A stretch of DNA of 11,242 nt from Candidatus Hermodarchaeota archaeon (GTDB lineage: Archaea > Asgardarchaeota > Heimdallarchaeia > Hodarchaeales > Hodarchaeaceae): positions 4,861 to 16,102 of the forward strand of contig JBHLKY010000042.1 in NCBI GenBank assembly GCA_048886185.1, given 5' to 3'. The notes under the pieces are model-generated. The model saw nothing but the letters and a program-made list of their open reading frames with translations. It was not told the DNA's origin and ran no database searches. Each line of letters opens with the position of its first letter. Positions within the stretch are counted from its first letter, which is position 1. Both the position numbers and the translations under genes were made by a program. Shown one piece after another: positions 138 through 11,242 of this stretch.

Positions 138-1193
138 ATGGTGGCAATAATTGTTATGCTAAAATCAAAACAAATAATCTTAGACCTGAGTGCCTACATA
201 GATCAGTCAATAATTGAAGCAAAAATCAAAGAAGCATTAGCCCACAACATATATGATTTTATTCTCCCTCTCGAAGTAGATTCATCAAATATTATTCTTG
301 ATTCTAAATCCTTACCTATTACTTTTCTGAAAATCACTGATTTTAAAACTGTCCACCAAATTTCAGCTAATTCAGAGCCAGAATTACGCTCTTTGTTTGA
401 ATCATCAGCTAAAATTTGTTTTGATCTTTCAAAAAATGAATGGGAAGTTATTCCATTAGAAAACATAATAGCTTGGGCTACAAATACTGCCTCTAAGATC
501 TATTCTAGGGTTAACTCCCTTGGAAAACTCAATTTACATTTTGAAATCCTTGAAAAAGGTGTTGATGGTGTAATTATTGATGAAAAAGCAGTAAACTATG
601 CTGAATTAGATAAAGTCAGGCTAAAATTAACTGATACATGTTTATCGTTAACCGAAGTAAAAATTGTTGAAATCAAGTCAGTTGGTTCTGGTGATCGTTG
701 TTGTTTAGATACTGCAGTTCTTTTAGACGATACGGAAGGAATGTTAATTGGTAATTTTTCTAGTGGATTTTTTCTTATTAGAGCAGAAAACATCCTTACA
801 GATCAGATACCACCTCGGCCTTTCCGAGTTAATGCTGGAGCTGTCCACTGTTACCTTTATACACCCACTAAAACCTTCTATTTATCAGAATTAAAATCGG
901 GATCGGAAGTTTTTGTTGTCAATAACGAAGGACGTGGGCGTTGTGTACCACTTGGCCGTAATAAAATTGAACAGCGCCCAATGGTTCAAGTTACAGCTGA
1001 AACGGATGTGGATAAAGAGTCAATCAGCATCATTGTGCAGCTAGCTGAAACAATAAGATTTGGAGCTAGAACAGAACGGGGATATATAACTGTGGACCAG
1101 CTTAAGTCTGGTGATAAGGTTTTAGCATATTTTCCTTCAACTAAATCCAGGCATTTTGGAACGGAAATCAATGAGTCCATCCAAGAAATATAA
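138..1193 (+). CDS. aroB': 3-dehydroquinate synthase II (MJ1249/AroB' family; homologous to GriH-type 3,4-AHBA synthase)
   Basis: Family motifs GSGDRCCLDT (cf. GxGDRVCVDT), PFRVNAGAVHCY, YLSELKSG, GRNKIEQRP, QLAETIRF and C-terminal RHFGTEINESIQE. Alternative start ATG 156 (MLKSKQIILD, GGTGG at 140-144) is equally plausible. Confidence 0.93.
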   Translation: MVAIIVMLKSKQIILDLSAYIDQSIIEAKIKEALAHNIYDFILPLEVDSSNIILDSKSLPITFLKITDFKTVHQISANSEPELRSLFESSAKICFDLSKNEWEVIPLENIIAWATNTASKIYSRVNSLGKLNLHFEILEKGVDGVIIDEKAVNYAELDKVRLKLTDTCLSLTEVKIVEIKSVGSGDRCCLDTAVLLDDTEGMLIGNFSSGFFLIRAENILTDQIPPRPFRVNAGAVHCYLYTPTKTFYLSELKSGSEVFVVNNEGRGRCVPLGRNKIEQRPMVQVTAETDVDKESISIIVQLAETIRFGARTERGYITVDQLKSGDKVLAYFPSTKSRHFGTEINESIQEI

Positions 1194-1860
1194 CCATATT
1201 TGTGGTGTTGTTACCGCTAAGACCGTTGACGAAGCGTTAACAATCATGGGAAGATACCATTTCTTAAGATTCATCGAAATTAGAGTTGATTATTTTGATA
1301 ATCCAATAGAAGCCTTGAGAGAGCTTTCTACAGAACCCATTAACTTACCAACAAAATGTATACTTACATACCGCTATCCTGAACACCAGAATTCATGGGA
1401 TTTTGTTCAACAAATATATACAAAAATTATCGAGCTAAAACCATCAATGGTTGATTTTAATTTTACATTAATAAAATTGTATCCTGCCTTCTTAGATCTA
1501 TGCAAAAAATATGAAGTCAGACCTATTTTATCAGCTCATCTCAATGATACTCCAGAAGTAGAACAATTAAAACACCTTCACAATGATCTTAACAATCTAT
1601 CAGCCAGTAGTATTAAAAAGATAGTTACAACAGCTCATTGTCTGGAAGACAACTTTACAACTTTAACTTTCTTGAATTCCTCTTCAAAAACTGATCTAAT
1701 TTGTTTTAGCTTAAGTCTCATTGGTCGTCTATCACGTATTCTATGCACATTCTATGGTTCTCTTCTTACATATGTTACTTTATCTAACGACAGGGTGGGG
1801 CCTGGTATATTAACTTTAGAAGAATATGAAAGGGTAGTCTCGATGTTATGTCTTGATTAA
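1171..1860 (+). CDS. aroD: Type I 3-dehydroquinate dehydratase, divergent
   Basis: EIRVDYF (ExRxD), LTYR, ILSAH (catalytic His), IKKIV (Schiff-base Lys), GRLSRI, GSLLTY and PG loop. ATG 1171 is preferred over the track's TTG 1156; it overlaps the aroB' stop by 23 bp. Confidence 0.85.
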   Translation: MSPSKKYNHICGVVTAKTVDEALTIMGRYHFLRFIEIRVDYFDNPIEALRELSTEPINLPTKCILTYRYPEHQNSWDFVQQIYTKIIELKPSMVDFNFTLIKLYPAFLDLCKKYEVRPILSAHLNDTPEVEQLKHLHNDLNNLSASSIKKIVTTAHCLEDNFTTLTFLNSSSKTDLICFSLSLIGRLSRILCTFYGSLLTYVTLSNDRVGPGILTLEEYERVVSMLCLD

Positions 1861-1890
1861 CAGGAATTTGTAGAATTATATGTATCATCA

Positions 1891-1922
1891 AATCATTTGT
1901 TCATGATTGAAATGTATAAAAG
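1891..1922 (+). promoter_or_regulatory. Possible internal promoter (TATAAAAG 1915-1922) preceded by a short inverted repeat AATCAT-N6-ATGATT (1891-1908)
   Basis: TATA-like box about 40 nt upstream of the ADH synthase start in a 96-102 bp intergenic gap. Such motifs arise easily in AT-rich DNA. Confidence 0.3.
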
Positions 1923-1962
1923 AAAGTAGAAAGAAAAGGAAAGAAAATTAGAGGCATTGATA

Positions 1963-2766
1963 ATGTCATTTCGTATGCATCGTATTTGTAAAGGTGGTCG
2001 TTTTCTCATTATCCCAATGGATCATGGATTTACGATTGGTCCAGTTACGGGGCTAATTGATATTAATAAGACTGTGGAAGCTGTTTCTAGTGGTGGTGCA
2101 ACTGCTATTCTGGGCCATAAAGGTTTTCTCCAGAGTATTGATCCTGAAATAATAGAGCCAACAACAGGTATCATTCTTCATATGAGCGGTAGCACTTCTT
2201 TTGGTCCAGATCCAAATTCTAAAGTGCTTATTGCATCATTAGACGATGCTTTTCGACTTGGTGTTGATGGTATTTCAGTTCATGTTAATGTTGGTGGATC
2301 TGATTATGAACCAAAAATGCTCTCAGATCTTGGTCAAATTGCTACAGAGAGTCAACAGTACAATATTCCCCTAATGGCTATGATGTACGCTCGTGGATCA
2401 AACATTGTAAATTCTTTCGATGCTAAAGTAATAGCCCATGCTGCAAGAATTGGCGCGGAATTAGGAGTAGATATTATCAAATGTAATTACACGGGTGATT
2501 CTGAAACATTTCGCGATGTTGTAAGGGGTTGTCCAAAACCTATAGTGATTGCTGGTGGCCCAAAGATGGATAATTCTTCAGAACTCATTAATATGGTTTG
2601 TGGAGCTATGGAAGCAGGAGCAGCAGGTATATCAATAGGGAGAAATATTTTTCAACATGATGATCCTAAACTCATAACACAAACAATGGCAAAGATTATC
2701 TTTGAAAACTACAGCCTGCAAAAAGCAACAAGCTTTTATGAAAGCCACGTTAATAAAATTGTGTGA
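1963..2766 (+). CDS. aroA': 2-amino-3,7-dideoxy-D-threo-hept-6-ulosonate (ADH) synthase, DhnA-type class I aldolase (MJ0400/AroA' family; homologous to GriI)
   Basis: PMDHG, GHKG, ILHMSGST, ISVHVNVG, MMYARG, AARIGAELGVDIIK (Schiff-base Lys), IAGGPK, GRNIFQH; clustered with DHQ synthase II. Start is ATG 1963 or TTG 1957 (in-frame TAG at 1927-1929). Not EPSP synthase despite the similar symbol. Confidence 0.9.
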   Translation: MSFRMHRICKGGRFLIIPMDHGFTIGPVTGLIDINKTVEAVSSGGATAILGHKGFLQSIDPEIIEPTTGIILHMSGSTSFGPDPNSKVLIASLDDAFRLGVDGISVHVNVGGSDYEPKMLSDLGQIATESQQYNIPLMAMMYARGSNIVNSFDAKVIAHAARIGAELGVDIIKCNYTGDSETFRDVVRGCPKPIVIAGGPKMDNSSELINMVCGAMEAGAAGISIGRNIFQHDDPKLITQTMAKIIFENYSLQKATSFYESHVNKIV

Positions 2767-2778
2767 TTACTATCGGAA

Positions 2779-3702
2779 GTGAAAATCATAGTTACCTTAA
2801 AAAAACGTATATATGGTCATTTAGTCCTTGTGCGTCCTTTACAGCTTTTCTGGCTTGATATTGTCGCTGGTTTTTCAGGTGTAGTTGTATTATTACAAGG
2901 ATTTCCTGATTTCTCAGATGTAATGTTCTTTTTTGCAATTTCTCTATTGGCTGACGCAGGCGCATGTACTTTTAATGATATAGCAGATATTGAGGTTGAC
3001 AGCAAGTCCATTGAATCGCGACGTTTTCGTCCGTTAGTTGTTGGAACTGTTTCAGTCCGCTCTGCTTGGATTCAAGGATTACTCTTGTATTGCTTGAGTG
3101 CTTTCTTGGCTTTCTTTATTAATCCTACTTTCTTTCTATTAACAATTCTAATGCTAATCTGGGCATTTCAATATTCCTTTCCACCATTACGTCTCACAGG
3201 ACGTCCATATATTTCCCAAGTTTATTGGGTAGTTTTCGTTTGTCTCTGGATAGCTCTTTTAACCTCTTATTTGGAACTACCATTTATTAAAAGTTTTTTC
3301 GACATATTTCCTTATTTAATGTATATGATGTTTTATTTATGTTTAGGAGAAACTATGGCGAAAGACATTCGAGATTGGGACAATGATAAATCTGCTGGAA
3401 AAAACACTACAACTGTTGTTATAGGACCTGCACGTGCAAGTGATTGGTCATTTGGCCTTGGATTTCTAGGTTGCTTGGGTTGGTTTTGGGCTGCTATTAG
3501 CTATAAACTTCATTTCTTTGTTATTATTGCTTTTGGTGCTATTGCTATACCGACATTTTACCTATTCTATCAATATCGCTCAAAATTACAGGTTGAATAT
3601 AATAAGATAATTGGACGTCACTTTCATGTAACTTATCTTCTATCAATGGCATTAATAACAATTTTGACAACTTTCTCTATTGGTTTTCAAGTGATAATGT
3701 GA
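2779..3702 (+). CDS. UbiA-superfamily membrane prenyltransferase, acceptor unknown
   Basis: N-terminal LVRP, first Asp-rich motif FNDIADIEVD...RPL, YSFPPLRL, second motif KDIRDWDNDKSAGKNT..V.IG, about 8-9 hydrophobic segments. GTG start 12 nt after the aroA' stop. Confidence 0.9.
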   Translation: MKIIVTLKKRIYGHLVLVRPLQLFWLDIVAGFSGVVVLLQGFPDFSDVMFFFAISLLADAGACTFNDIADIEVDSKSIESRRFRPLVVGTVSVRSAWIQGLLLYCLSAFLAFFINPTFFLLTILMLIWAFQYSFPPLRLTGRPYISQVYWVVFVCLWIALLTSYLELPFIKSFFDIFPYLMYMMFYLCLGETMAKDIRDWDNDKSAGKNTTTVVIGPARASDWSFGLGFLGCLGWFWAAISYKLHFFVIIAFGAIAIPTFYLFYQYRSKLQVEYNKIIGRHFHVTYLLSMALITILTTFSIGFQVIM

Positions 3703-3753
3703 TGAATACATTTCTTAAGACATTCTTTGTCGTAATTCATGCATGGTGAAATA

Positions 3754-4650
3754 ATGGAATCCTTTCCAGTTAGGAAAAAATCAATTACTAAACAAATTCT
3801 TATCAATCTAGGTATATTAGTTAGTTCTTTAATTTGTAGTTTTCTTTTTGTTAATGTATTTCTTAATTTTCTCGCGTCGCAATGGTATTATGATTTGGAT
3901 ACACAAATTATAGGTGATGAAACTGAGTTATTGTATAATTTGGGAAAATTATTTCAGCTATTTGGTTTAATTGTCGCTATTGGTTTATCAAGCCTTATCG
4001 TAATTGCTTTTTTCAGAAACATTCGTCAAAAAAACTTCTCTAGATTCGCGCAGTTTTCCATAGCTTGGTTTTTCATAATCTTAGGGGTAATTACTGGTTT
4101 TACATTCTTTTTTCCTGAGGGGACTGGTGTTTTAGCAGATAGAGAATTCTATTGGAGAGCTGCTTTTCCTTTTGCAATAATAGGAGTCGGTTTTTCCATT
4201 CTTATGACCACTGAAGTAATAGAGAGTCAGAAAAAAGGAAAAAAACTGATTCTATGGCTAGTAATGCTAACTTTGTTATCTTTGGGAATCTTTACAACCA
4301 TTAGTTATGATAAAATCCATCCTTGGGGTCAAGATGCAAACCACCCTTGGATGCTAAGTTTGTCCCTAGGAGCTCATTATCTGGTAACATTTTGGATAAT
4401 AGGAATGTCTTTCGTATTATTAACGATCAAAATTCGTTTTTACATGGCTTGGAACGATTTAATTAATATTTCAGCATGTTGCAGTTCTTTAATAACTTTC
4501 ATAGTAGCATTTCCCCCATTTATTCCAAGAGGTGTAACTTATATTGAGTTATACAGATATTTTGCGGTGATTTTAATATTGGGGGCTATTTCAATGCTTC
4601 TATGGAGTATTAATGAAATAATTAAACAAAAATTAGATGGAAATAAGTAA
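3754..4650 (+). CDS. Hypothetical integral membrane protein (~8 TM by eye)
   Basis: Long ORF with repeated hydrophobic 20-aa stretches. GGTGA at 3745-3749 sits 4 nt before ATG 3754, favouring it over ATG 3739. Confidence 0.85.
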   Translation: MESFPVRKKSITKQILINLGILVSSLICSFLFVNVFLNFLASQWYYDLDTQIIGDETELLYNLGKLFQLFGLIVAIGLSSLIVIAFFRNIRQKNFSRFAQFSIAWFFIILGVITGFTFFFPEGTGVLADREFYWRAAFPFAIIGVGFSILMTTEVIESQKKGKKLILWLVMLTLLSLGIFTTISYDKIHPWGQDANHPWMLSLSLGAHYLVTFWIIGMSFVLLTIKIRFYMAWNDLINISACCSSLITFIVAFPPFIPRGVTYIELYRYFAVILILGAISMLLWSINEIIKQKLDGNK

Positions 4651-5488
4651 ATTGGTAGAAGAATCGGAACTGGAAGCTGTTTGCATTTACGTTCAGTGGG
4701 TAGTAAATACAATAGGGAAAATACCTGCTGGGGAACAATTTATTAGCAATACAATTTATGAAATCTTTAATGTATCAATCTACTTGTTCTTACCGATTAA
4801 TTTGCTGTTATGGACAATTTTTGTGATCCAAATACTGAATGTCAGACAAGAAAAAACAATAGTTGAAAAAATAGAAATATTACTAATACCAAGTTTGCTG
4901 GTAATTGGTACTTCAGAAGTTTGTATCCGATTTGTTCTAAGTGGTTCATTGGAATCTATCAAATTGGATTTAGACTATAAAGGCTGGATTCTTATCTTTA
5001 TTTGCTGGATTTATCTAGTAATTATTCTAGAAACATCTAAGCTGATTTTACAAGATACTTCTATCGTTATTCCAACCATCAATAAATCAGAACTTAATGT
5101 GATATTAGCTCTTGTTCTAAGCATAATTTGGATTGGCATCCGTATAGTATTTGGGATTAATCAAAGTCTGTTGTTCTTAGAGTTTGTTAACATTATAAGT
5201 TTGTTATTGATTATTTTTATAACGTTAACAAAAGAGATGACACCAAAAATTCTTTTTCACTGGTTATTCATCATCAGTGTTTTATTCATAGTTCTTATTG
5301 TCTACCCTGGGATAATGGTTGATCCTCCAAAGATGGAAACACAGACCTATATTTATTTACGTAACCAATTCATTGGTATGGGCGTAATGGGAATCATCTG
5401 GACGCTTTTGCTTAGTCTTCTTGAACGAAATGAGTATTCAAGCAATCCATCACAGACCAAAGTAGGACATGTACTCCAATATGATTAA
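4637..5488 (+). CDS. Hypothetical integral membrane protein (~7 TM by eye), probable distant paralog of the upstream gene
   Basis: 283-aa hydrophobic ORF overlapping the upstream stop by 14 bp. Shares NIRQK/NVRQEK and TYIxLxxxF...GxI..LL.S..E patterns with it. Confidence 0.85.
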   Translation: MEISKLVEESELEAVCIYVQWVVNTIGKIPAGEQFISNTIYEIFNVSIYLFLPINLLLWTIFVIQILNVRQEKTIVEKIEILLIPSLLVIGTSEVCIRFVLSGSLESIKLDLDYKGWILIFICWIYLVIILETSKLILQDTSIVIPTINKSELNVILALVLSIIWIGIRIVFGINQSLLFLEFVNIISLLLIIFITLTKEMTPKILFHWLFIISVLFIVLIVYPGIMVDPPKMETQTYIYLRNQFIGMGVMGIIWTLLLSLLERNEYSSNPSQTKVGHVLQYD

Positions 5489-5507
5489 CGAAAAAGTGTA
5501 CCAAAAA

Positions 5508-5568
5508 GTCGAACAGCCCGTTCGGAATAGCAAACACGCTGTAGGAATTTCACGGCCAAGCGTTCGAT
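5508..5568 (+). other. attC-like 61-bp imperfect palindrome (candidate integron recombination site or structured element)
   Basis: Ends GTCGAAC (5508-5514) and GTTCGAT (5562-5568) are complementary. Inner arms CCGT-[TC]-GGAAT (5518-5528) pair with ATTTC-ACGG (5547-5555). 32/60 GC by hand count. Starts 19 nt after a stop codon. Confidence 0.4.
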
Positions 5569-5606
5569 TATATAGGTATTTAAAGATGCCATTAGAAGAG
5601 TTAGTC

Positions 5607-5633
5607 ATTATTGATGGTTAATCCATTAATAAT
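5607..5633. repeat. 27-bp near-perfect inverted repeat ATTATTGATGG-TTAAT-CCATTAATAAT
   Basis: 11-bp arms matching 10/11 (one G-T) with a 5-nt spacer; read directly. Confidence 0.8.
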
Positions 5634-5657
5634 TCAATAGTCTAAATTTCTAAATTA

Positions 5658-5680
5658 AGGAAATATAAACAATCTAGATT
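5658..5680 (+). promoter_or_regulatory. Putative archaeal promoter (purine-rich BRE-like AGGAAA + TATAAA 5664-5669) followed by perfect palindrome AATCTAGATT (5671-5680)
   Basis: TATA-like box 42 nt upstream of ATG 5712; GGAGA at 5700-5704 is a possible RBS. Confidence 0.4.
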
Positions 5681-5711
5681 TGAAATCCAATAGAAAATTG
5701 GAGATGTTGAA

Positions 5712-6371
5712 ATGAAATGGTATTTTCCAATTCTGGGAGCACTACTTTTGATTTTTTTTTCTCCTTTCATTGATAAGGACTTACCAGTGGTTTTACCTGT
5801 ACAAACTGAAGGTAAAAAATTTATGATTCCAGTAGGTGCCTTGTGGTTTGATCTCACCTCTTCAGAACCAATAAAAAGGTTTGCTTTAGCAGAGTTTTAT
5901 CCAGATCAATCATTTATTGGTCGGTATGATATTAAGATCGAGGGTAATTTATATTTGGAAGACTATTCCCCTGCTTGCAGTGTTATTTGCCGAAATCTAT
6001 GGAACAGCTCAGACGTTCCACATGAGATGTCTACGAGTGATTTTTTTCATGAAACGTATACCTATAGTTACAGCCAACCAACAATACACAACTCAGATTT
6101 TTCTATACAACTAGAACTAAAAGCTGACACGGAAATATCAACCCAAAATCCAGTTAAAGGATGGTTCTTATTGAAAGTGATTCATGATGGGGTAACTGAA
6201 AAACCTGATGATTTCACCATGCCAACGCCCGTGGATACAACAACAGCTACTGACACCACAGAAACAGAAACGATAGATTCAAACTCCAAACAAGAAGTTT
6301 CTTTTACAAATAGTTTCATTTGCTTTCTTTCCTTGGGAGTGCTCTTTCTCATACAAAAAAAGTTCAAATAG
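5712..6371 (+). CDS. Hypothetical secreted/cell-surface protein, copy 1
   Basis: N-terminal hydrophobic signal, beta-strand-like core with CSVIC, Thr-rich linker (PTPVDTTTATDTTETET), C-terminal TM plus basic tail (QKKFK). Confidence 0.88.
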   Translation: MKWYFPILGALLLIFFSPFIDKDLPVVLPVQTEGKKFMIPVGALWFDLTSSEPIKRFALAEFYPDQSFIGRYDIKIEGNLYLEDYSPACSVICRNLWNSSDVPHEMSTSDFFHETYTYSYSQPTIHNSDFSIQLELKADTEISTQNPVKGWFLLKVIHDGVTEKPDDFTMPTPVDTTTATDTTETETIDSNSKQEVSFTNSFICFLSLGVLFLIQKKFK

Positions 6372-6391
6372 ACCCTTAGAGTGGCTATCAA

Positions 6392-7051
6392 ATGGAATGG
6401 CGATCCTTGTTTCTGGTAGTTTTTCTTATTACTTTTATTTTCTCTTTCACCATCAAAGACTTATCAATGGTTTTACCTGAACCAACTGAAGGTAAAATAT
6501 TTAGAGTGCCAGGAGGTGCCTTATGGTTCAATCTCACCTCTTCAGAACCAGTAAAAAGGTTTACCTTAACAGAATTTTACCCAGATCAATCATTTATTGG
6601 TCGGTATGATATTAAAATCGACAGTATGTTGTATTTAATAGATCATTCTCCTGTTTGTAGTGTTATTTGCCGAAATCTATGGAATAGCTCAGATGCTCCT
6701 CATGAGATGTCTACAAGTGAAGATTTTCATAAAACATATACCTATAGTTACAGCCAACCAACAGTGGATAATTCGGATTTTTCTATACAACTGAAATTAA
6801 GAGCTGAAACGGAAATACCAACCCAAAATCCAGTTAAAGGATGGTTCCTATTGAAAGTGATTCATGATGGGGTAACTGATAAACCTGATGATTTCACCAT
6901 GCCAACACCTGTGGATACAGCAACAACTACTAACACTACAGAAACAGAAACGATGGATTCAAACTCCAAACAAGAAGTTTCCTTTATAAACAGTTTTATT
7001 TGCTTTCTTTCTTTGGGAATGCTCTTTCTCTTGAAAAAAAAGGTCAGGTAA
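6392..7051 (+). CDS. Hypothetical secreted/cell-surface protein, copy 2
   Basis: Same length (219 aa) and architecture as copy 1; 165/219 identical by ungapped hand alignment. Confidence 0.88.
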   Translation: MEWRSLFLVVFLITFIFSFTIKDLSMVLPEPTEGKIFRVPGGALWFNLTSSEPVKRFTLTEFYPDQSFIGRYDIKIDSMLYLIDHSPVCSVICRNLWNSSDAPHEMSTSEDFHKTYTYSYSQPTVDNSDFSIQLKLRAETEIPTQNPVKGWFLLKVIHDGVTDKPDDFTMPTPVDTATTTNTTETETMDSNSKQEVSFINSFICFLSLGMLFLLKKKVR

Positions 7052-7136
7052 ACCCTTGAAGTGGCTATCATATGAACTATTGGCATTCATTAACAAGAAA
7101 ATAGAAAAAAAAAAGTCGTAATAATGAGGGTATAGC

Positions 7137-8468
7137 ATGCGAATTCCTGATCGGATAGTTAATTATATATTATGGAAGGCTTCATCTGATTATTTCACTT
7201 TGAGGAGATTGAAAAAAACAGTTAAACTAGCCCATCAAACGGAATTTTATCGGGAAAAATTATCTAAAGCTGGTGTTAGAAGCATCAGTTCCATTGAGGA
7301 TTTTATAACCAAAATTCCACTCACCCAACGAGAAGAGATTTCTCTCGAGGCCATTTCTCCTTATGATCTACTAGCTGTTGACTCGAGTAAAGAGATGGTT
7401 TTATTTGGACAGACCAGTGGAGCGACTAGTGGTCATTCTGTTCCTGTTTTTATGACCAAAAAGGAATTCAAGAAAGCTATCAAAATGGCAATGAGGTTAC
7501 CTGTTTTCAAACATATTTCTTCTCGAGATCGCGTATGCCTTCTTTTTCCGATGGTTAGAACATTTGCTGGGCAGACAGCTGCAGCTATGGTGGAACATGC
7601 AGGAGCGTTACTGGCCAGTATGGGTACGCGTACTAATATCAACCCACCAGAACAAGTGGGCAAAACCATTCTTAAACTAAAGCCAACGATATTAGGGGTA
7701 GTTGCCACTGATGCCCTTGCTCTTGCTCAAATATTCAAGGATTGGGGGATAAACCCTAAGAGTATAGGTGTTAAAAAACTAGTTATAGGTGCAGAACTCT
7801 GTTCAAAAAATCGGATGAAGAGGATGCAAGAAATCTATGGCGCAGAGATGATTTTTAATTTTGTTGGTCAAAACGAAGTAGGATTACCAGGGATTCCATG
7901 TATCAAAGGAAACACGCATTTTCCATCGATTGCGATGTTTGTTGAATTGTGGTCGATAGATGGAAAACATAAGGTTGGTTTTGGTCAACAAGCAGTTCCA
8001 GTGATCACTCCTTTGTTTAAAAAAGCCATGCCAGTGCTCCGTTATTGGACAAAGGACATTGTTATCATGGAAGAAGGGAAAAACTGTCCTTGTGGACTTC
8101 AATTACCTTTATACAACATCTTAGGGAGAGAAGGAACCGAGATACGTGCGAAAAATGACAATGCCTTGATGCCTATCGAAATAGAAGACATTCTGTACAA
8201 AACAGCTATTGATGGTGTTTGGTACCAAATCGAGATAGATGAGGATACAGTAGCTATAACTGTTGAACATCGGGTGAAGAAGGAATGGAAAATACTTGAA
8301 AGCGAAATTGCAGGTAATTTCATGGGAGTCTTTGATCAAAAGATTCAAGTAGAGTGTGTTCCTGTTGGTACATTATATGATTATACAGTAATCCGTCCTG
8401 GTAAACCCATCTCAAGGATAGTTGATCATAGAAAAACTGAATCAGTTCCCATATTGGAAGGTGCATGA
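7137..8468 (+). CDS. Phenylacetate-CoA ligase (PaaK)/F390 synthetase-like adenylate-forming enzyme, divergent
   Basis: FYREKL..AG, P-loop QTSGATSG, KPTIL, LVIGAE, VGQNEVG (cf. YGxSE), MPVLRYWTKD (cf. PxIRYRTxD), CPCG, ILGR, C-terminal GKPISRIVDHRK. GAGG RBS at 7126-7129. Confidence 0.85.
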   Translation: MRIPDRIVNYILWKASSDYFTLRRLKKTVKLAHQTEFYREKLSKAGVRSISSIEDFITKIPLTQREEISLEAISPYDLLAVDSSKEMVLFGQTSGATSGHSVPVFMTKKEFKKAIKMAMRLPVFKHISSRDRVCLLFPMVRTFAGQTAAAMVEHAGALLASMGTRTNINPPEQVGKTILKLKPTILGVVATDALALAQIFKDWGINPKSIGVKKLVIGAELCSKNRMKRMQEIYGAEMIFNFVGQNEVGLPGIPCIKGNTHFPSIAMFVELWSIDGKHKVGFGQQAVPVITPLFKKAMPVLRYWTKDIVIMEEGKNCPCGLQLPLYNILGREGTEIRAKNDNALMPIEIEDILYKTAIDGVWYQIEIDEDTVAITVEHRVKKEWKILESEIAGNFMGVFDQKIQVECVPVGTLYDYTVIRPGKPISRIVDHRKTESVPILEGA

Positions 8469-8529
8469 TCTTAAGTTTCCTACAATTTTATTTCCAAAAT
8501 ACCAAAAACAGCTATTTATGGTGAGAATA

Positions 8530-9645
8530 ATGTCAAATTCTTTTGGTCAAATATTTCGAATTACCATCTTTGGTGAGAGTTATGGAGAGTCAATAGGAGT
8601 TGTTATTGATGGTTGTCCACCTGGTATATTGATTGATCCCAAAGAAATCGAAGAGGCTCTTAAGAAGGGTGAAGCAAGATACTTACCAGGGATTACTAGT
8701 GAGCGGACGGAATCTAATGAGTTCAAGATCAAATCAGGTGTTTTTAATGGATTTAGTACTGGAGCTCCTATAACTTTAGAGATAGCTAATGAAGATCTAA
8801 GAGACAGTTCAAAATATGAAAAACGGAAGCATACTCCGCGCCCTGGTCATTCAGACTTTACTACGAGATTAAAATATGGTGGTTTCAATGATTACAGGGG
8901 AGGTGGTCGTTTTTCGGGCAGAGTGATGGTTGCGATAACGGCTGCAGGTTGTATTGCCAAGAAATTACTTTTGAATTACGCAAATGTCCGCATCTTTACA
9001 TTCACTTCACAAATTGGCAGTATTTCATTTCAAATGAACGAATTTAATGAAGGAATTTTTGATAGAGATCCCTATAATTATCTATCTAGGTGCCCCGATT
9101 ATGAGATTGACCGTATAATGGTAGAGGAAATTCTTAAGGTAAAAAATGAAGGGGATAGTATTGGCGGGATAATTTCATGCTATATTAAAGGTATTCCAAC
9201 AGGTCTTGGGGAACCACTTTTCAATAATATTGAGAGTAACCTAGCTTCAGGAATGTTTAGTATCCCAGGAGCATGTGCCATTGATTTTGGAACAGGGTTT
9301 CGATTAGCTCAAATGAAAGGATCTGAAGCCAATGACCAGTTATATTACAATTCTCGGAAAGATCGCTTCGAGACTAAAACGAATCATAGTGGAGGAATAT
9401 TAGGTGGAATATCAACTGGTATCTCTCCTATTACTTTCCATTTAGCATTTAAACCAACCCCGTCAATTTACAAACCCCAACATACAGTTAATCTAAAAAC
9501 AAAGGAAAATTTTGTAATGAAATTAGGTGGACGGTTTGATCCGTGTATTGTGCCCAGAGCAGTGATAATAGTGGAACAACTAGCTGCTCTAGTGTTTGCA
9601 GATTTGTTCTTGTTGGCTGAAGTTGCTAAACCGAAAAAATTCTAA
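8530..9645 (+). CDS. aroC: Chorismate synthase homolog with atypical active-site residues
   Basis: MSNSFG..FRITIFGES.G, IDGCPPG, PRPGHSD, DYRGGGRFSGR, GDSIGG, GLGEP, NHSGGILGGIS, FKPTPSI, GRFDPCIVPRA. Start ATG 8530 has GGTGAG at 8520-8525; the track start at 8422 is an in-frame TTG inside the upstream gene. Confidence 0.92.
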   Translation: MSNSFGQIFRITIFGESYGESIGVVIDGCPPGILIDPKEIEEALKKGEARYLPGITSERTESNEFKIKSGVFNGFSTGAPITLEIANEDLRDSSKYEKRKHTPRPGHSDFTTRLKYGGFNDYRGGGRFSGRVMVAITAAGCIAKKLLLNYANVRIFTFTSQIGSISFQMNEFNEGIFDRDPYNYLSRCPDYEIDRIMVEEILKVKNEGDSIGGIISCYIKGIPTGLGEPLFNNIESNLASGMFSIPGACAIDFGTGFRLAQMKGSEANDQLYYNSRKDRFETKTNHSGGILGGISTGISPITFHLAFKPTPSIYKPQHTVNLKTKENFVMKLGGRFDPCIVPRAVIIVEQLAALVFADLFLLAEVAKPKKF

Positions 9646-9648
9646 TTC

Positions 9649-10503
9649 TTAGAGGAGACGAATGCAGCTCACACGGGATTTTAAGATTAGTGAAGGATCT
9701 AGTCCGTCCCACGCTTTTATGATATTTGGTTCATCCTTTTTGTGACATAAAGCAACAATTGCAGGACCAGTGCCAGAAACTGATGCTGCTAGTGCTTTAT
9801 TTTTTAAAGCAATATCCATTGGAGTGGTATCATATTCAAATGATCGTGCGACAAGGAAGCCATTTTGTGTCATAGCCGTTAAGAAGTCTGTTTTGGCTTT
9901 TTTAATAATTTCTTGCATTTCTAAGGCGTTTTGTTGAAAATTAGTTATTTCCTCAAAAAAGTTAACTGTTTTTCGTGCCTTGAATTTACCAGGAATAAAA
10001 ATTAAAACAATAATTTCAAAAGGCACTGGCTGATGCAACAATACCAGGTTCTGAGTGTTATTAGTGATGCAGAAACCTCCTAACAAAGAAGCAGTTGCAT
10101 CATCCAGAGCACCTGTCACTGAAATCTTTGCTTGTATTGCAGCACTTGTACTAATGTCTAAAATTTGTTTTACAGAAAGTTGCACGTTGGCAGCATTAAC
10201 AGTCGCTAACACAGCAGCATTAATAACAGCACTAGAACTTTTTAAGCCAAAAGCAATGGGAATATTCGAACCAACGGTAACTATTCCCCCTAATGGTTTC
10301 TGTTCTCCAATGTAGGTCAAAGTTTTTTTTATAGCAATTTGAACTGCATGTGAAGGCGCTAGCAACGGCTTATTCTCTTTTAGATTAATAATTACATCAG
10401 TAAAGAGGTCTTTTAAGCCTATAGCTGCTCCTGTTCCAGTAGCCAATGCATTAATAACACTGATAGCCCCAAAGGCATGCCCGTGACCTTTAAAAATGTT
10501 AAT
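9649..10503 (-). CDS. aroK: Archaeal (GHMP-superfamily) shikimate kinase; start probably non-canonical ATT at 10503 or 10497
   Basis: GAISVINALATGTGAAIG, IPIAFGLKSSSA, SVTGALDDATASLLGG, SVSGTGPA. The conserved N-terminal motif lies upstream of the track's TTG at 10446. 284 aa from ATT 10503. Confidence 0.88.
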   Translation of the reverse strand: MNIFKGHGHAFGAISVINALATGTGAAIGLKDLFTDVIINLKENKPLLAPSHAVQIAIKKTLTYIGEQKPLGGIVTVGSNIPIAFGLKSSSAVINAAVLATVNAANVQLSVKQILDISTSAAIQAKISVTGALDDATASLLGGFCITNNTQNLVLLHQPVPFEIIVLIFIPGKFKARKTVNFFEEITNFQQNALEMQEIIKKAKTDFLTAMTQNGFLVARSFEYDTTPMDIALKNKALAASVSGTGPAIVALCHKKDEPNIIKAWDGLDPSLILKSRVSCIRLL

Positions 10504-11242
10504 TAGTGATTTCCCTCCAAATAGACCTCATAATTTCTAGATCGGTTTCTAACCTGGTCCATATTGAAAAGGCTTTTGCTGCTTGACCTAAGAACATTTT
10601 TACACCACTGACGACATTTTTGTGATATTCAGTAGCTTGTTCAACTAGCCTTGTTACCGATGGGTTATAAACCATATCGAATACAAAAGTACACTTTTTT
10701 ATCCAGCTTGTTGGAACAATAGTTGAAAAAGTTTGGCCAGCCATTCCTACTGGAGTTGCATTAACAATCAAATCAATATCTGGTATAATTTTCAGGGAAT
10801 CGGTGAGAGAAATATATTCTAATCCGAATTCCTTAGCTAATTTTTTACCCTTAGCTTCAGTACGGTTAACTAATATACCAGTTTTATTTTTTAAAGCAAC
10901 ACACAGTGCTCGGGCAGCGCCCCCAGCTCCAAAAACAGCGTAGCTACCAATCTGGTCTATGTATTCAGTCAAAGCACTACTAATTCCATCAATATCTGTA
11001 TTATACCCTTGAAGTTTCTCTCCATCAAACCATATTGTGTTAATTGCTTTTATTTCCTCTACTGATTGATCCAAGGAGTCACATAGCGGAAGAATACTCT
11101 CTTTAAAAGGAGTCGTAATATTAGCTCCCAAAAAATTTATCTCCTTAAGTCCCTCAATAGCTTTCTTGAGATCATTGGGAGCAAAGGCAAGATAACAGAA
11201 ATTAAGATTATAAAATGAGATTAAAGCGTTCATGACAGGGGG
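10499..11242 (-). CDS. aroE: Shikimate dehydrogenase (NADP), 5'-partial at the window edge
   Basis: GANITTPFKE, AINTI, GYNTD, GAGGAARA, VNRT, VNATPVGM, FDMVYNP, G.KMFLGQA..AF.IWT. The frame stays open to 11242 (CCC CCT GTC ATG), and the usual SxSP N-terminus is missing, so ATG 11233 is probably internal. Confidence 0.93.
   Translation of the reverse strand, partial: PPVMNALISFYNLNFCYLAFAPNDLKKAIEGLKEINFLGANITTPFKESILPLCDSLDQSVEEIKAINTIWFDGEKLQGYNTDIDGISSALTEYIDQIGSYAVFGAGGAARALCVALKNKTGILVNRTEAKGKKLAKEFGLEYISLTDSLKIIPDIDLIVNATPVGMAGQTFSTIVPTSWIKKCTFVFDMVYNPSVTRLVEQATEYHKNVVSGVKMFLGQAAKAFSIWTRLETDLEIMRSIWREITN
10513..10518 (-). promoter_or_regulatory. Shine-Dalgarno-like GGAGGG upstream of the aroK N-terminus, inside the aroE 3' end
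   Basis: Minus strand reads TTT GGAGGG AAATCACTA ATT AAC ATT TTT AAA GGT. Confidence 0.55.

Follow-up and report, generated by a model that had tools for sequence, protein, structure and literature searches.

Gene content of the locus

We analysed a window of 11,242 nucleotides from the metagenome-assembled genome (MAG) of a Hodarchaeales archaeon (G000, 4.84 Mb, 96% complete; contig C42, positions 4861-16102), the 3′ end of which coincides with the end of the contig. It contains a cluster of 12 genes in which six genes of the shikimate pathway are combined with genes for a PaaK-like adenylate-forming ligase and a membrane prenyltransferase of the UbiA superfamily. The pathway to chorismate is incomplete, with six of its seven steps encoded and the sixth, 5-enolpyruvylshikimate 3-phosphate (EPSP) synthase, not found genome-wide. 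EPSP synthase, the target of glyphosate, is held to be indispensable for passing from the shikimate kinase step to that of chorismate synthase. The genes are listed below with their positions in the window.

156-1193, plus strand: aroB′, 3-dehydroquinate synthase II (PF01959, 279.9 bits); gene call taken from sibling MAGs, overlaps aroD
1171-1860, plus strand: aroD, type I 3-dehydroquinate dehydratase (PF01487, 96.9 bits)
1963-2766, plus strand: aroA′, 2-amino-3,7-dideoxy-D-threo-hept-6-ulosonate (ADH) synthase, a DhnA-type aldolase (TIGR01949, 304.1 bits, cut-off 299.45; NF005556, 327 bits, cut-off 241)
2779-3702, plus strand: ubiA, UbiA-superfamily membrane prenyltransferase (PF01040, 105.6 bits, cut-off 34.2)
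3754-4650, plus strand: polytopic membrane protein 1, of unknown family (hydrophobic translation, no Pfam or NCBIfam match)
4652-5488, plus strand: polytopic membrane protein 2, of unknown family (no family match; also in the congener G012)
5712-6371, plus strand: surface protein paralogue a, 219 aa, with signal peptide, Thr-rich linker and C-terminal anchor (no family match)
6392-7051, plus strand: surface protein paralogue b, 219 aa, with signal peptide, Thr-rich linker and C-terminal anchor (paralogue of 5712-6371)
7137-8468, plus strand: PaaK-like adenylate-forming ligase, 443 aa, of a discrete family (BagE/FevW and PaaK models best, below cut-off)
8530-9645, plus strand: aroC, encoding a chorismate-synthase paralogue, hereafter CS* (TIGR00033, 370.1 bits, cut-off 212.2; PF01264, 375 bits)
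9649-10503, minus strand: aroK, archaeal GHMP-type shikimate kinase (TIGR01920, 160.4 bits, cut-off 126.85)
10499-11242, minus strand: aroE, shikimate dehydrogenase (TIGR00507, 201.9 bits, cut-off 200.2); N-terminus lost at the contig end

An earlier note on this DNA, made from its letters alone, had listed the six shikimate genes, the UbiA gene and the PaaK-like gene, and the profile matches bear out that list and its positions. The four open reading frames (ORFs) between ubiA and the ligase gene, encoding two polytopic membrane proteins and two paralogous surface proteins, are an addition to it. The genes are tightly spaced: aroB′ overlaps aroD and aroK overlaps aroE, while gaps of 12 and 61 nt separate aroA′ from ubiA and the ligase gene from aroC. 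All 12 genes are under purifying selection, with ratios of non-synonymous to synonymous substitution rates (dN/dS, pairwise between G000 and G012) of 0.15-0.42; the value is 0.15 for aroC, aroK, ubiA and the ligase gene, 0.21 for membrane protein 1 and 0.42 for membrane protein 2. Neither the surface ORF nor the UbiA protein gave anything specific in the Protein Atlas. The truncated aroE is 276 aa long on L052, a contig of a near-identical sibling MAG. In this sibling, the chorismate synthase gene is split into separate ORFs (80 and 316 aa; L052:11288-12580), due to a frameshift or an assembly error; the gene is intact on four other sibling contigs.

Search for EPSP synthase

The Pfam profile PF00275, whose range includes AroA as well as MurA, found matches in all 14 control genomes and had none in G000 or in its 21 congeners. 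EPSP synthase, whose absence from the gene run of the window the earlier note had pointed out, was thus not found in these genomes either. Its caveat, that the gene may lie just outside the window and upstream of aroE, failed on all three lines: the genome-wide search, a tblastn search with three Heimdallarchaeia EPSP synthases, and the sibling contigs L052 and L056, which reach 2-3 kb beyond aroE and carry only small hypothetical genes there and no EPSP synthase. A divergent enzyme in G000 was rejected on the same tblastn search, which gave nothing better than E ~1. Two other candidates were rejected. The gene of about 300 aa upstream of aroC in Thermoplasmatota, considered as a miniature EPSP synthase, encodes a low-complexity N-terminus and a membrane domain and has no homologue in G000, and the two 219-aa ORFs, considered as halves of a split enzyme, are paralogous secreted and anchored proteins.

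Among the 17 genomes in which we found the ligase family (see below), PF00275 matched in two (G041 and G352) and was missing in G000, in its congeners G003 and G012 and in 12 of the 14 Thermoplasmatota carriers. Both G041 and G352 encode two chorismate synthases, a canonical one that adjoins the EPSP synthase gene and a cluster-type one beside the ligase gene. Canonical aroC genes of Heimdallarchaeia have EPSP synthase directly upstream in four out of four genomes (G023, G026, G030 and G034), and the three operons inspected (G034, G026 and G023) read aroA′-aroB′-aroD/E-aroK-EPSP synthase-aroC as far as the contigs reach. The genes of these canonical operons are 28-48% identical to those of the window and are arranged differently.

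The chorismate-synthase paralogue

CS* passes for an AroC by its whole-protein score but fails at the substrate site, where the GESH His, the loop Arg and the RxExD Asp are replaced. A genuine AroC also implies an organism that can make EPSP, and PF00275 is absent from G000. We aligned the cluster-type enzymes with 144 canonical ones, comprising 140 representatives of the nearest 150 clusters (of 1.84 billion proteins) and four canonical archaeal copies. Four positions with at least 90% conservation are changed in both cluster types. The RRxPG loop has lost its Arg (present in 99% of canonical enzymes), which gives way to Gly in the Hodarchaeota type and to Asp in the Thermoplasmatota type; the Asp of RxExD (98%) is Asn in both; the Thr of SxRxT (94%) is Met in the former and Trp in the latter; and the His of GRHD (91%) is Phe in both. 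The GESH His, 99% conserved, is replaced by Tyr in G000 and G003 (GESY). The His of RPGH is kept. Loss of the loop Arg together with the Asn occurs in only two of the 140 representatives, each of which falls within one of the cluster-type clades. The two clades are split in a FastTree tree, and a single clade is not rejected by the approximately unbiased test (p = 0.516).

In the enzyme of P. brasiliensis, R46, R103 and R362 bind the carboxylates of EPSP, and R129 and R354 bind the phosphate (PMC11633415). By residue numbering, the lost loop Arg corresponds to R46, and the counterparts of R103, R362, R129 and R354 are retained. From this alignment, the Arg lost from CS* probably serves to bind a carboxylate of the substrate.

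Among solved structures, the chorismate synthase of the window best matches 7rca (263 bits) and the yeast-type 1r52 (260 bits), other PDB entries scoring 128-211 bits. A further homologue with the loop Arg changed to Asp, RxExN and GRFD was detected alone on a 5.4-kb contig (L058:3065-4111), flanked by genes for a seven-transmembrane histidine kinase and a FecR-like protein, with no ligase or ubiA gene nearby.

The PaaK-like ligase and the UbiA prenyltransferase

The ligase has the hallmarks of the ANL/PaaK-like superfamily: T93, S94, G95 and T97 of the P-loop (TSGxT) and G422-K423, which includes the catalytic C-terminal Lys, are invariant in 26 members of its family. Its best NCBIfam matches are the BagE/FevW and PaaK models (E about 1e-27 to 1e-20), all far below their cut-offs; the PaaK equivalog TIGR02155, for instance, gives 73.8 bits where 646 are needed. 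The family is discrete: it comprises about 62 cluster representatives (42-83% identity), beyond which identity drops to 26% or less, the range into which annotated PaaK proteins fall. The nearest PDB entries are PaaK (9s3l and 4r1l, with PaaK matches up to E 3e-27), AjiA1 (6wuq) and NatL2 (6siw). The presence of NatL2 and AjiA1, which form esters or amides of aryl acids, among the nearest structures suggests that the ligase may activate a ring carboxylate. Four cysteines (C222, C255, C317 and C319) are also invariant in the 26 members, which suggests a putative metal site; to our knowledge, such a site has not been described for PaaK enzymes.

The prenyltransferase belongs to the UbiA superfamily by its PF01040 score and by two Asp-rich motifs (NDIADIEVD and DIRDWDND), and it is 82% identical to the copy of G012. 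It reaches no NCBIfam equivalog cut-off: 4-hydroxybenzoate polyprenyltransferase (TIGR01474) scores 40.7 bits against 275.45 and digeranylgeranylglyceryl phosphate (DGGGP) synthase (PRK12883) 59.6 bits against 353, and MenA is also far off. The scores to DGGGP-synthase-like and 4-hydroxybenzoate-transferase-like models are weak and about equal, so that the acceptor, and C- as opposed to O-prenylation, cannot be assigned from sequence. G000 has about 15 UbiA-superfamily genes (e.g., C1:21449-22207, C1:366-1124 and C11:40236-40946), and the Thermoplasmatota carriers G042 and G092 have 16-18; this UbiA repertoire is unusually large.

Conservation of the module across two phyla

The ligase family is present in 17 GTDB species genomes, three from Hodarchaeota and 14 from Thermoplasmatota, and on every contig of sufficient length the ligase gene has ubiA and shikimate genes as neighbours. 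Across the class Thermoplasmata, only three of the 301 genomes searched encoded the ligase; the family is therefore rare. In Thermoplasmatota the operon runs membrane protein-aroC-ligase-ubiA-aroA′-aroB′-aroD-aroE-aroK, with aroC, ligase and ubiA contiguous and separated by gaps or overlaps of a few bases. The adjacencies aroA′-ubiA and ligase-aroC are preserved in the Hodarchaeota genomes. On a JGI contig, likewise, the gene directly upstream of a chorismate synthase gene (63% identity) encodes the ligase (57% identity). The earlier note had proposed examining relatives for conservation of the ubiA, PaaK-like and aroC neighbourhood; it is kept across two phyla and is not an unrelated insertion. 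The combination that the note had named as telling against its reading, an intact EPSP synthase together with relatives having the same aro genes and no such block, was not encountered. The shikimate kinase varies between module versions, being of the GHMP or of the SKI type, and the use of two kinase types suggests that shikimate 3-phosphate (S3P) is a required intermediate.

The remaining partners differ between the two phyla. The asd gene lies alongside in the Thermoplasmatota versions, which usually also encode aspartate kinase, an Fe-S membrane protein of the NapH-like type and a pair of large surface paralogues. The NapH-like protein (Fer4_5) and the surface pair are always present in the module at L019:2696-7827 and its equivalents in L025-L037 and L049. 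These surface paralogues (about 620 aa and 711-890 aa) align to one another at an hhalign probability of 100%, belong to no Pfam family and contain Asp/Asn-rich repeats resembling calcium-binding motifs. Homology of the middle genes of Hodarchaeota to the Thermoplasmatota partners T303, T619 and T711 was rejected (hhalign probabilities below 1%). In G012 the four middle ORFs, including both surface paralogues, are conserved in inverted orientation, with aroA′-ubiA and ligase-aroC still adjacent. The G012 block also contains a gene for a TnpB-family RNA-guided endonuclease (L006:9000-10163, minus strand; NF040570, 159 bits).

Chorismate consumers and aromatic end products

We searched 18 genomes for known users of chorismate. 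The TrpE/PabB/MenF family (PF00425) was found in one of them, which is not G000, and neither prephenate dehydratase nor MqnA/MqnD (PF02621) was found in any. In five genomes, there was no match to chorismate mutase CM_2, and none above cut-off to prephenate dehydrogenase or indole-3-glycerol phosphate synthase. Menaquinone synthesis by the classical (PF00425) or the futalosine (PF02621) route was not found in G000 either. Since no known pathway leading from chorismate to Phe, Tyr, Trp or menaquinone was found, the cluster is not feeding those products, which supports the guess of the earlier note that it does not merely serve Phe, Tyr and Trp. The operon most likely produces a prenylated compound that has not been described, rather than aromatic amino acids. 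UbiD is present in all five of five genomes; because UbiD-family enzymes also act in the archaeal mevalonate pathway, we give its presence little weight.

Heimdallarchaeia are predicted to reduce menaquinone (bioRxiv 10.1101/2024.07.04.601786). With no menaquinone route found in G000, a prenylated shikimate derivative becomes a candidate carrier, though the cluster is confined to a few species of the genus.

A putative shikimate branch independent of EPSP synthase

Taken together, these data lead us to favour, with moderate confidence, a dedicated shikimate branch that would proceed independently of EPSP synthase to a prenylated, adenylate-activated product. The archaeal route would be used only as far as S3P: aroA′, aroB′, aroD, aroE and aroK would convert aspartate semialdehyde and 6-deoxy-5-ketofructose 1-phosphate, via ADH, 3-dehydroquinate (DHQ), 3-dehydroshikimate (DHS) and shikimate, into S3P. 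CS*, the ligase and the UbiA prenyltransferase would then complete the pathway. The elimination catalysed by chorismate synthase consists in the loss of the 3-phosphate and of a C6 hydrogen, and the enolpyruvyl group is not chemically involved; the paralogue could therefore act on S3P or on an alkylated S3P. In the first case, CS* would remove phosphate from S3P itself, giving 3,4-dihydroxycyclohexa-1,5-diene-1-carboxylate, which readily aromatises to 3- or 4-hydroxybenzoate. In the second, it would act on an O-prenylated S3P, the hydroxyl having been alkylated by UbiA in place of enolpyruvylation. In either case UbiA would add the prenyl group, the ligase would activate the ring carboxylate, and the pathway would end in a cyclohexadiene or hydroxybenzoate derivative that is prenylated and activated at its carboxyl group, e.g., a membrane lipid or a quinone-like carrier.

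The full form of this proposal is more tentative: a chorismate-synthase paralogue retooled for S3P or for a UbiA-made O-prenyl-S3P, operating in some Hodarchaeales and Thermoplasmatota and yielding a hitherto unknown archaeal membrane product, possibly an electron carrier. Such a branch, having no EPSP synthase, would therefore be insensitive to glyphosate.

Several observations weigh against a dedicated branch of this kind. Among the 21 congeners, the cluster with its chorismate synthase is limited to G000, G003 and G012, and is thus an accessory trait within the genus. A fourth genome, G015, shows the ligase gene, aroA′, a partial aroD and a 17-aa trace of ubiA, with no aroC (CP070760.1, 1133000-1153000; L007/L022); it is 70% complete and a single-record 'chromosome', in which decay and joining artefacts are indistinguishable. 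All genomes compared are MAGs, and those recorded as single 'chromosomes' are not demonstrably closed. Two contigs of Promethearchaeota/Hodarchaeota carry a ligase gene (59% identity) with no aro gene within reach, so that the linkage between ligase and aro genes is strong and not absolute. The variable-length loop of CS* contains another Arg one to three residues from the lost position, which could substitute for it. Finally, on the Logan metagenomic contig L049 a genuine EPSP synthase gene (TIGR01356, 386 bits) has as neighbours the ligase gene, ubiA, aroA′ and the genes for the two surface proteins and the NapH-like Fe-S protein. Some versions of the module may thus run through EPSP or chorismate, and independence of EPSP synthase is not universal.

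Contig L049 also lends itself to a more conventional explanation, as do G041 and G352, in which EPSP synthase is encoded elsewhere in the genome. The pathway would make ordinary chorismate by an EPSP synthase that is unassembled or divergent, and a chorismate-derived acid such as 4-hydroxybenzoate would be prenylated and activated, as at the start of ubiquinone synthesis by UbiC and UbiA; prenylation of 4-hydroxybenzoate is a textbook reaction of the UbiA superfamily. We consider this unlikely. The profile that was positive in every control is silent in 15 of the 17 carriers, including the 96%-complete G000; three independent Hodarchaeota MAGs give no match, and the chance omission of the same gene from all of these assemblies is improbable. 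Moreover, in both carriers that do encode EPSP synthase, it is accompanied by an additional, canonical aroC.

It is also improbable that the missing enzyme was displaced by a non-orthologous one, i.e. that the ligase, UbiA or an unrecognised protein transfers the enolpyruvyl group and that true EPSP and chorismate are made and consumed by unrecognised enzymes. The ligase gene does stand immediately before aroC, in the place taken by EPSP synthase in the canonical operons of Heimdallarchaeia, its 443-aa product is close in length to EPSP synthases (421-440 aa), and aroK and aroC are both held under selection. Against this, neither adenylate-forming nor UbiA chemistry, as established, gives an obvious enol ether from phosphoenolpyruvate; EPSP synthase coexists with the ligase and ubiA in G041, G352 and L049; no known chorismate consumer was found; and CS* lacks the conserved Arg with a probable role in binding a substrate carboxylate.

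In archaea DHQ is the source of p-aminobenzoate, which offers a precedent for a cluster in which only the early steps matter. DHQ, DHS or shikimate would then serve as a cofactor precursor, aroK and aroC would be carried along, and ubiA and the ligase would belong to an unrelated lipid chemistry. The core most widely common to the module versions is indeed ligase, ubiA, aroA′ and aroB′. We nevertheless find this explanation doubtful, since aroC is contiguous with ligase and ubiA in Thermoplasmatota, aroK and aroC are among the genes with the lowest dN/dS of the cluster, and genomes with a canonical aroC keep a separate cluster-type copy.

Least probable, and largely refuted, is an unrelated insertion of the ubiA-to-ligase block into a decaying aromatic-amino-acid operon that had already lost EPSP synthase: the lineage-specific middle ORFs (inverted and joined by tnpB in G012), the split aroC of one sibling MAG, the mere fragments in G015 and the absence of the whole pathway from most congeners would fit it, but 14 Thermoplasmatota genomes, as well as further metagenome contigs, show the same linkage of ubiA and the ligase gene to these aro genes, all genes of the cluster evolve under constraint, and the canonical operons of Heimdallarchaeia are only distantly similar and differently arranged.

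The enzymes on both sides of the missing step are kept under selection with neither EPSP synthase nor known chorismate users, which points to a new reaction of a chorismate-synthase paralogue or to a new alkylation of S3P. Annotation pipelines would wrongly assign partial aromatic-amino-acid synthesis to these archaea, among them some Hodarchaeales, which are close relatives of eukaryotes.

Comparison with known systems

Full-text literature searches found no published description of this operon. Its closest counterpart is the archaeal shikimate pathway of the Methanocaldococcus type, with AroA′, AroB′ and a GHMP kinase. Homologues of aroA′, aroB′, aroD, aroE, aroK and aroC are all present in the cluster, and those of aroA′, aroE, aroK and aroC reach the NCBIfam equivalog models. 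Unlike that pathway, the cluster occurs in a genome in which no EPSP synthase, chorismate mutase, prephenate or Trp enzymes were found, it has a ligase and a prenyltransferase embedded in it, and its chorismate synthase is altered at conserved residues of the substrate site.

The clusters for 3-amino-4-hydroxybenzoate (3,4-AHBA) and benzoxazoles (GriI/GriH and BagB/BagC, with the ligases BagE, NatL2 and AjiA1) also group a DhnA-type aldolase, a homologue of 3-dehydroquinate synthase II and a PaaK-like ligase. The aldolase and synthase of the window are of the shikimate kind: aroA′ scores 304 bits to ADH synthase against 212 to BagB, and aroB′ 256 bits to 3-dehydroquinate synthase II against 148 to BagC. 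The exception models of the 3,4-AHBA enzymes are not reached by any of the three proteins (212 bits against 500 for BagB, 148 against 750 for BagC and 95.5 against 800 for BagE). Also unlike the 3,4-AHBA clusters, the window contains aroD, aroE, aroK and aroC, and DHQ, not 3,4-AHBA, is therefore the expected product.

The chorismatases FkbO, Hyg5 and XanB2 and the route from shikimate to cyclohexanecarboxyl-CoA provide starters (3,4-dihydroxycyclohexadiene carboxylate, 3-hydroxybenzoate or 4-hydroxybenzoate) that are activated by adenylation. The diene intermediate and the adenylating activation proposed here would resemble them. In those routes chorismate or shikimate is the starting compound and the enzymes are unrelated, whereas the elimination proposed here would be carried out by a chorismate-synthase paralogue on a substrate without an enolpyruvyl group.

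With the ubiquinone (UbiC/UbiA) and futalosine (MqnA/MqnP) routes, the cluster shares a UbiA-superfamily enzyme placed beside the chorismate synthase step and the principle of attaching a prenyl group to a ring acid derived from shikimate. It differs from them in that no MqnA/MqnD or EPSP synthase was found, in that its UbiA protein falls below the cut-offs for 4-hydroxybenzoate transferase, MenA and DGGGP synthase, and in that a PaaK-like ligase is added. If the proposed chemistry is correct, the cluster would represent a pathway to a shikimate-derived prenylated metabolite that is set apart by doing without EPSP synthase.

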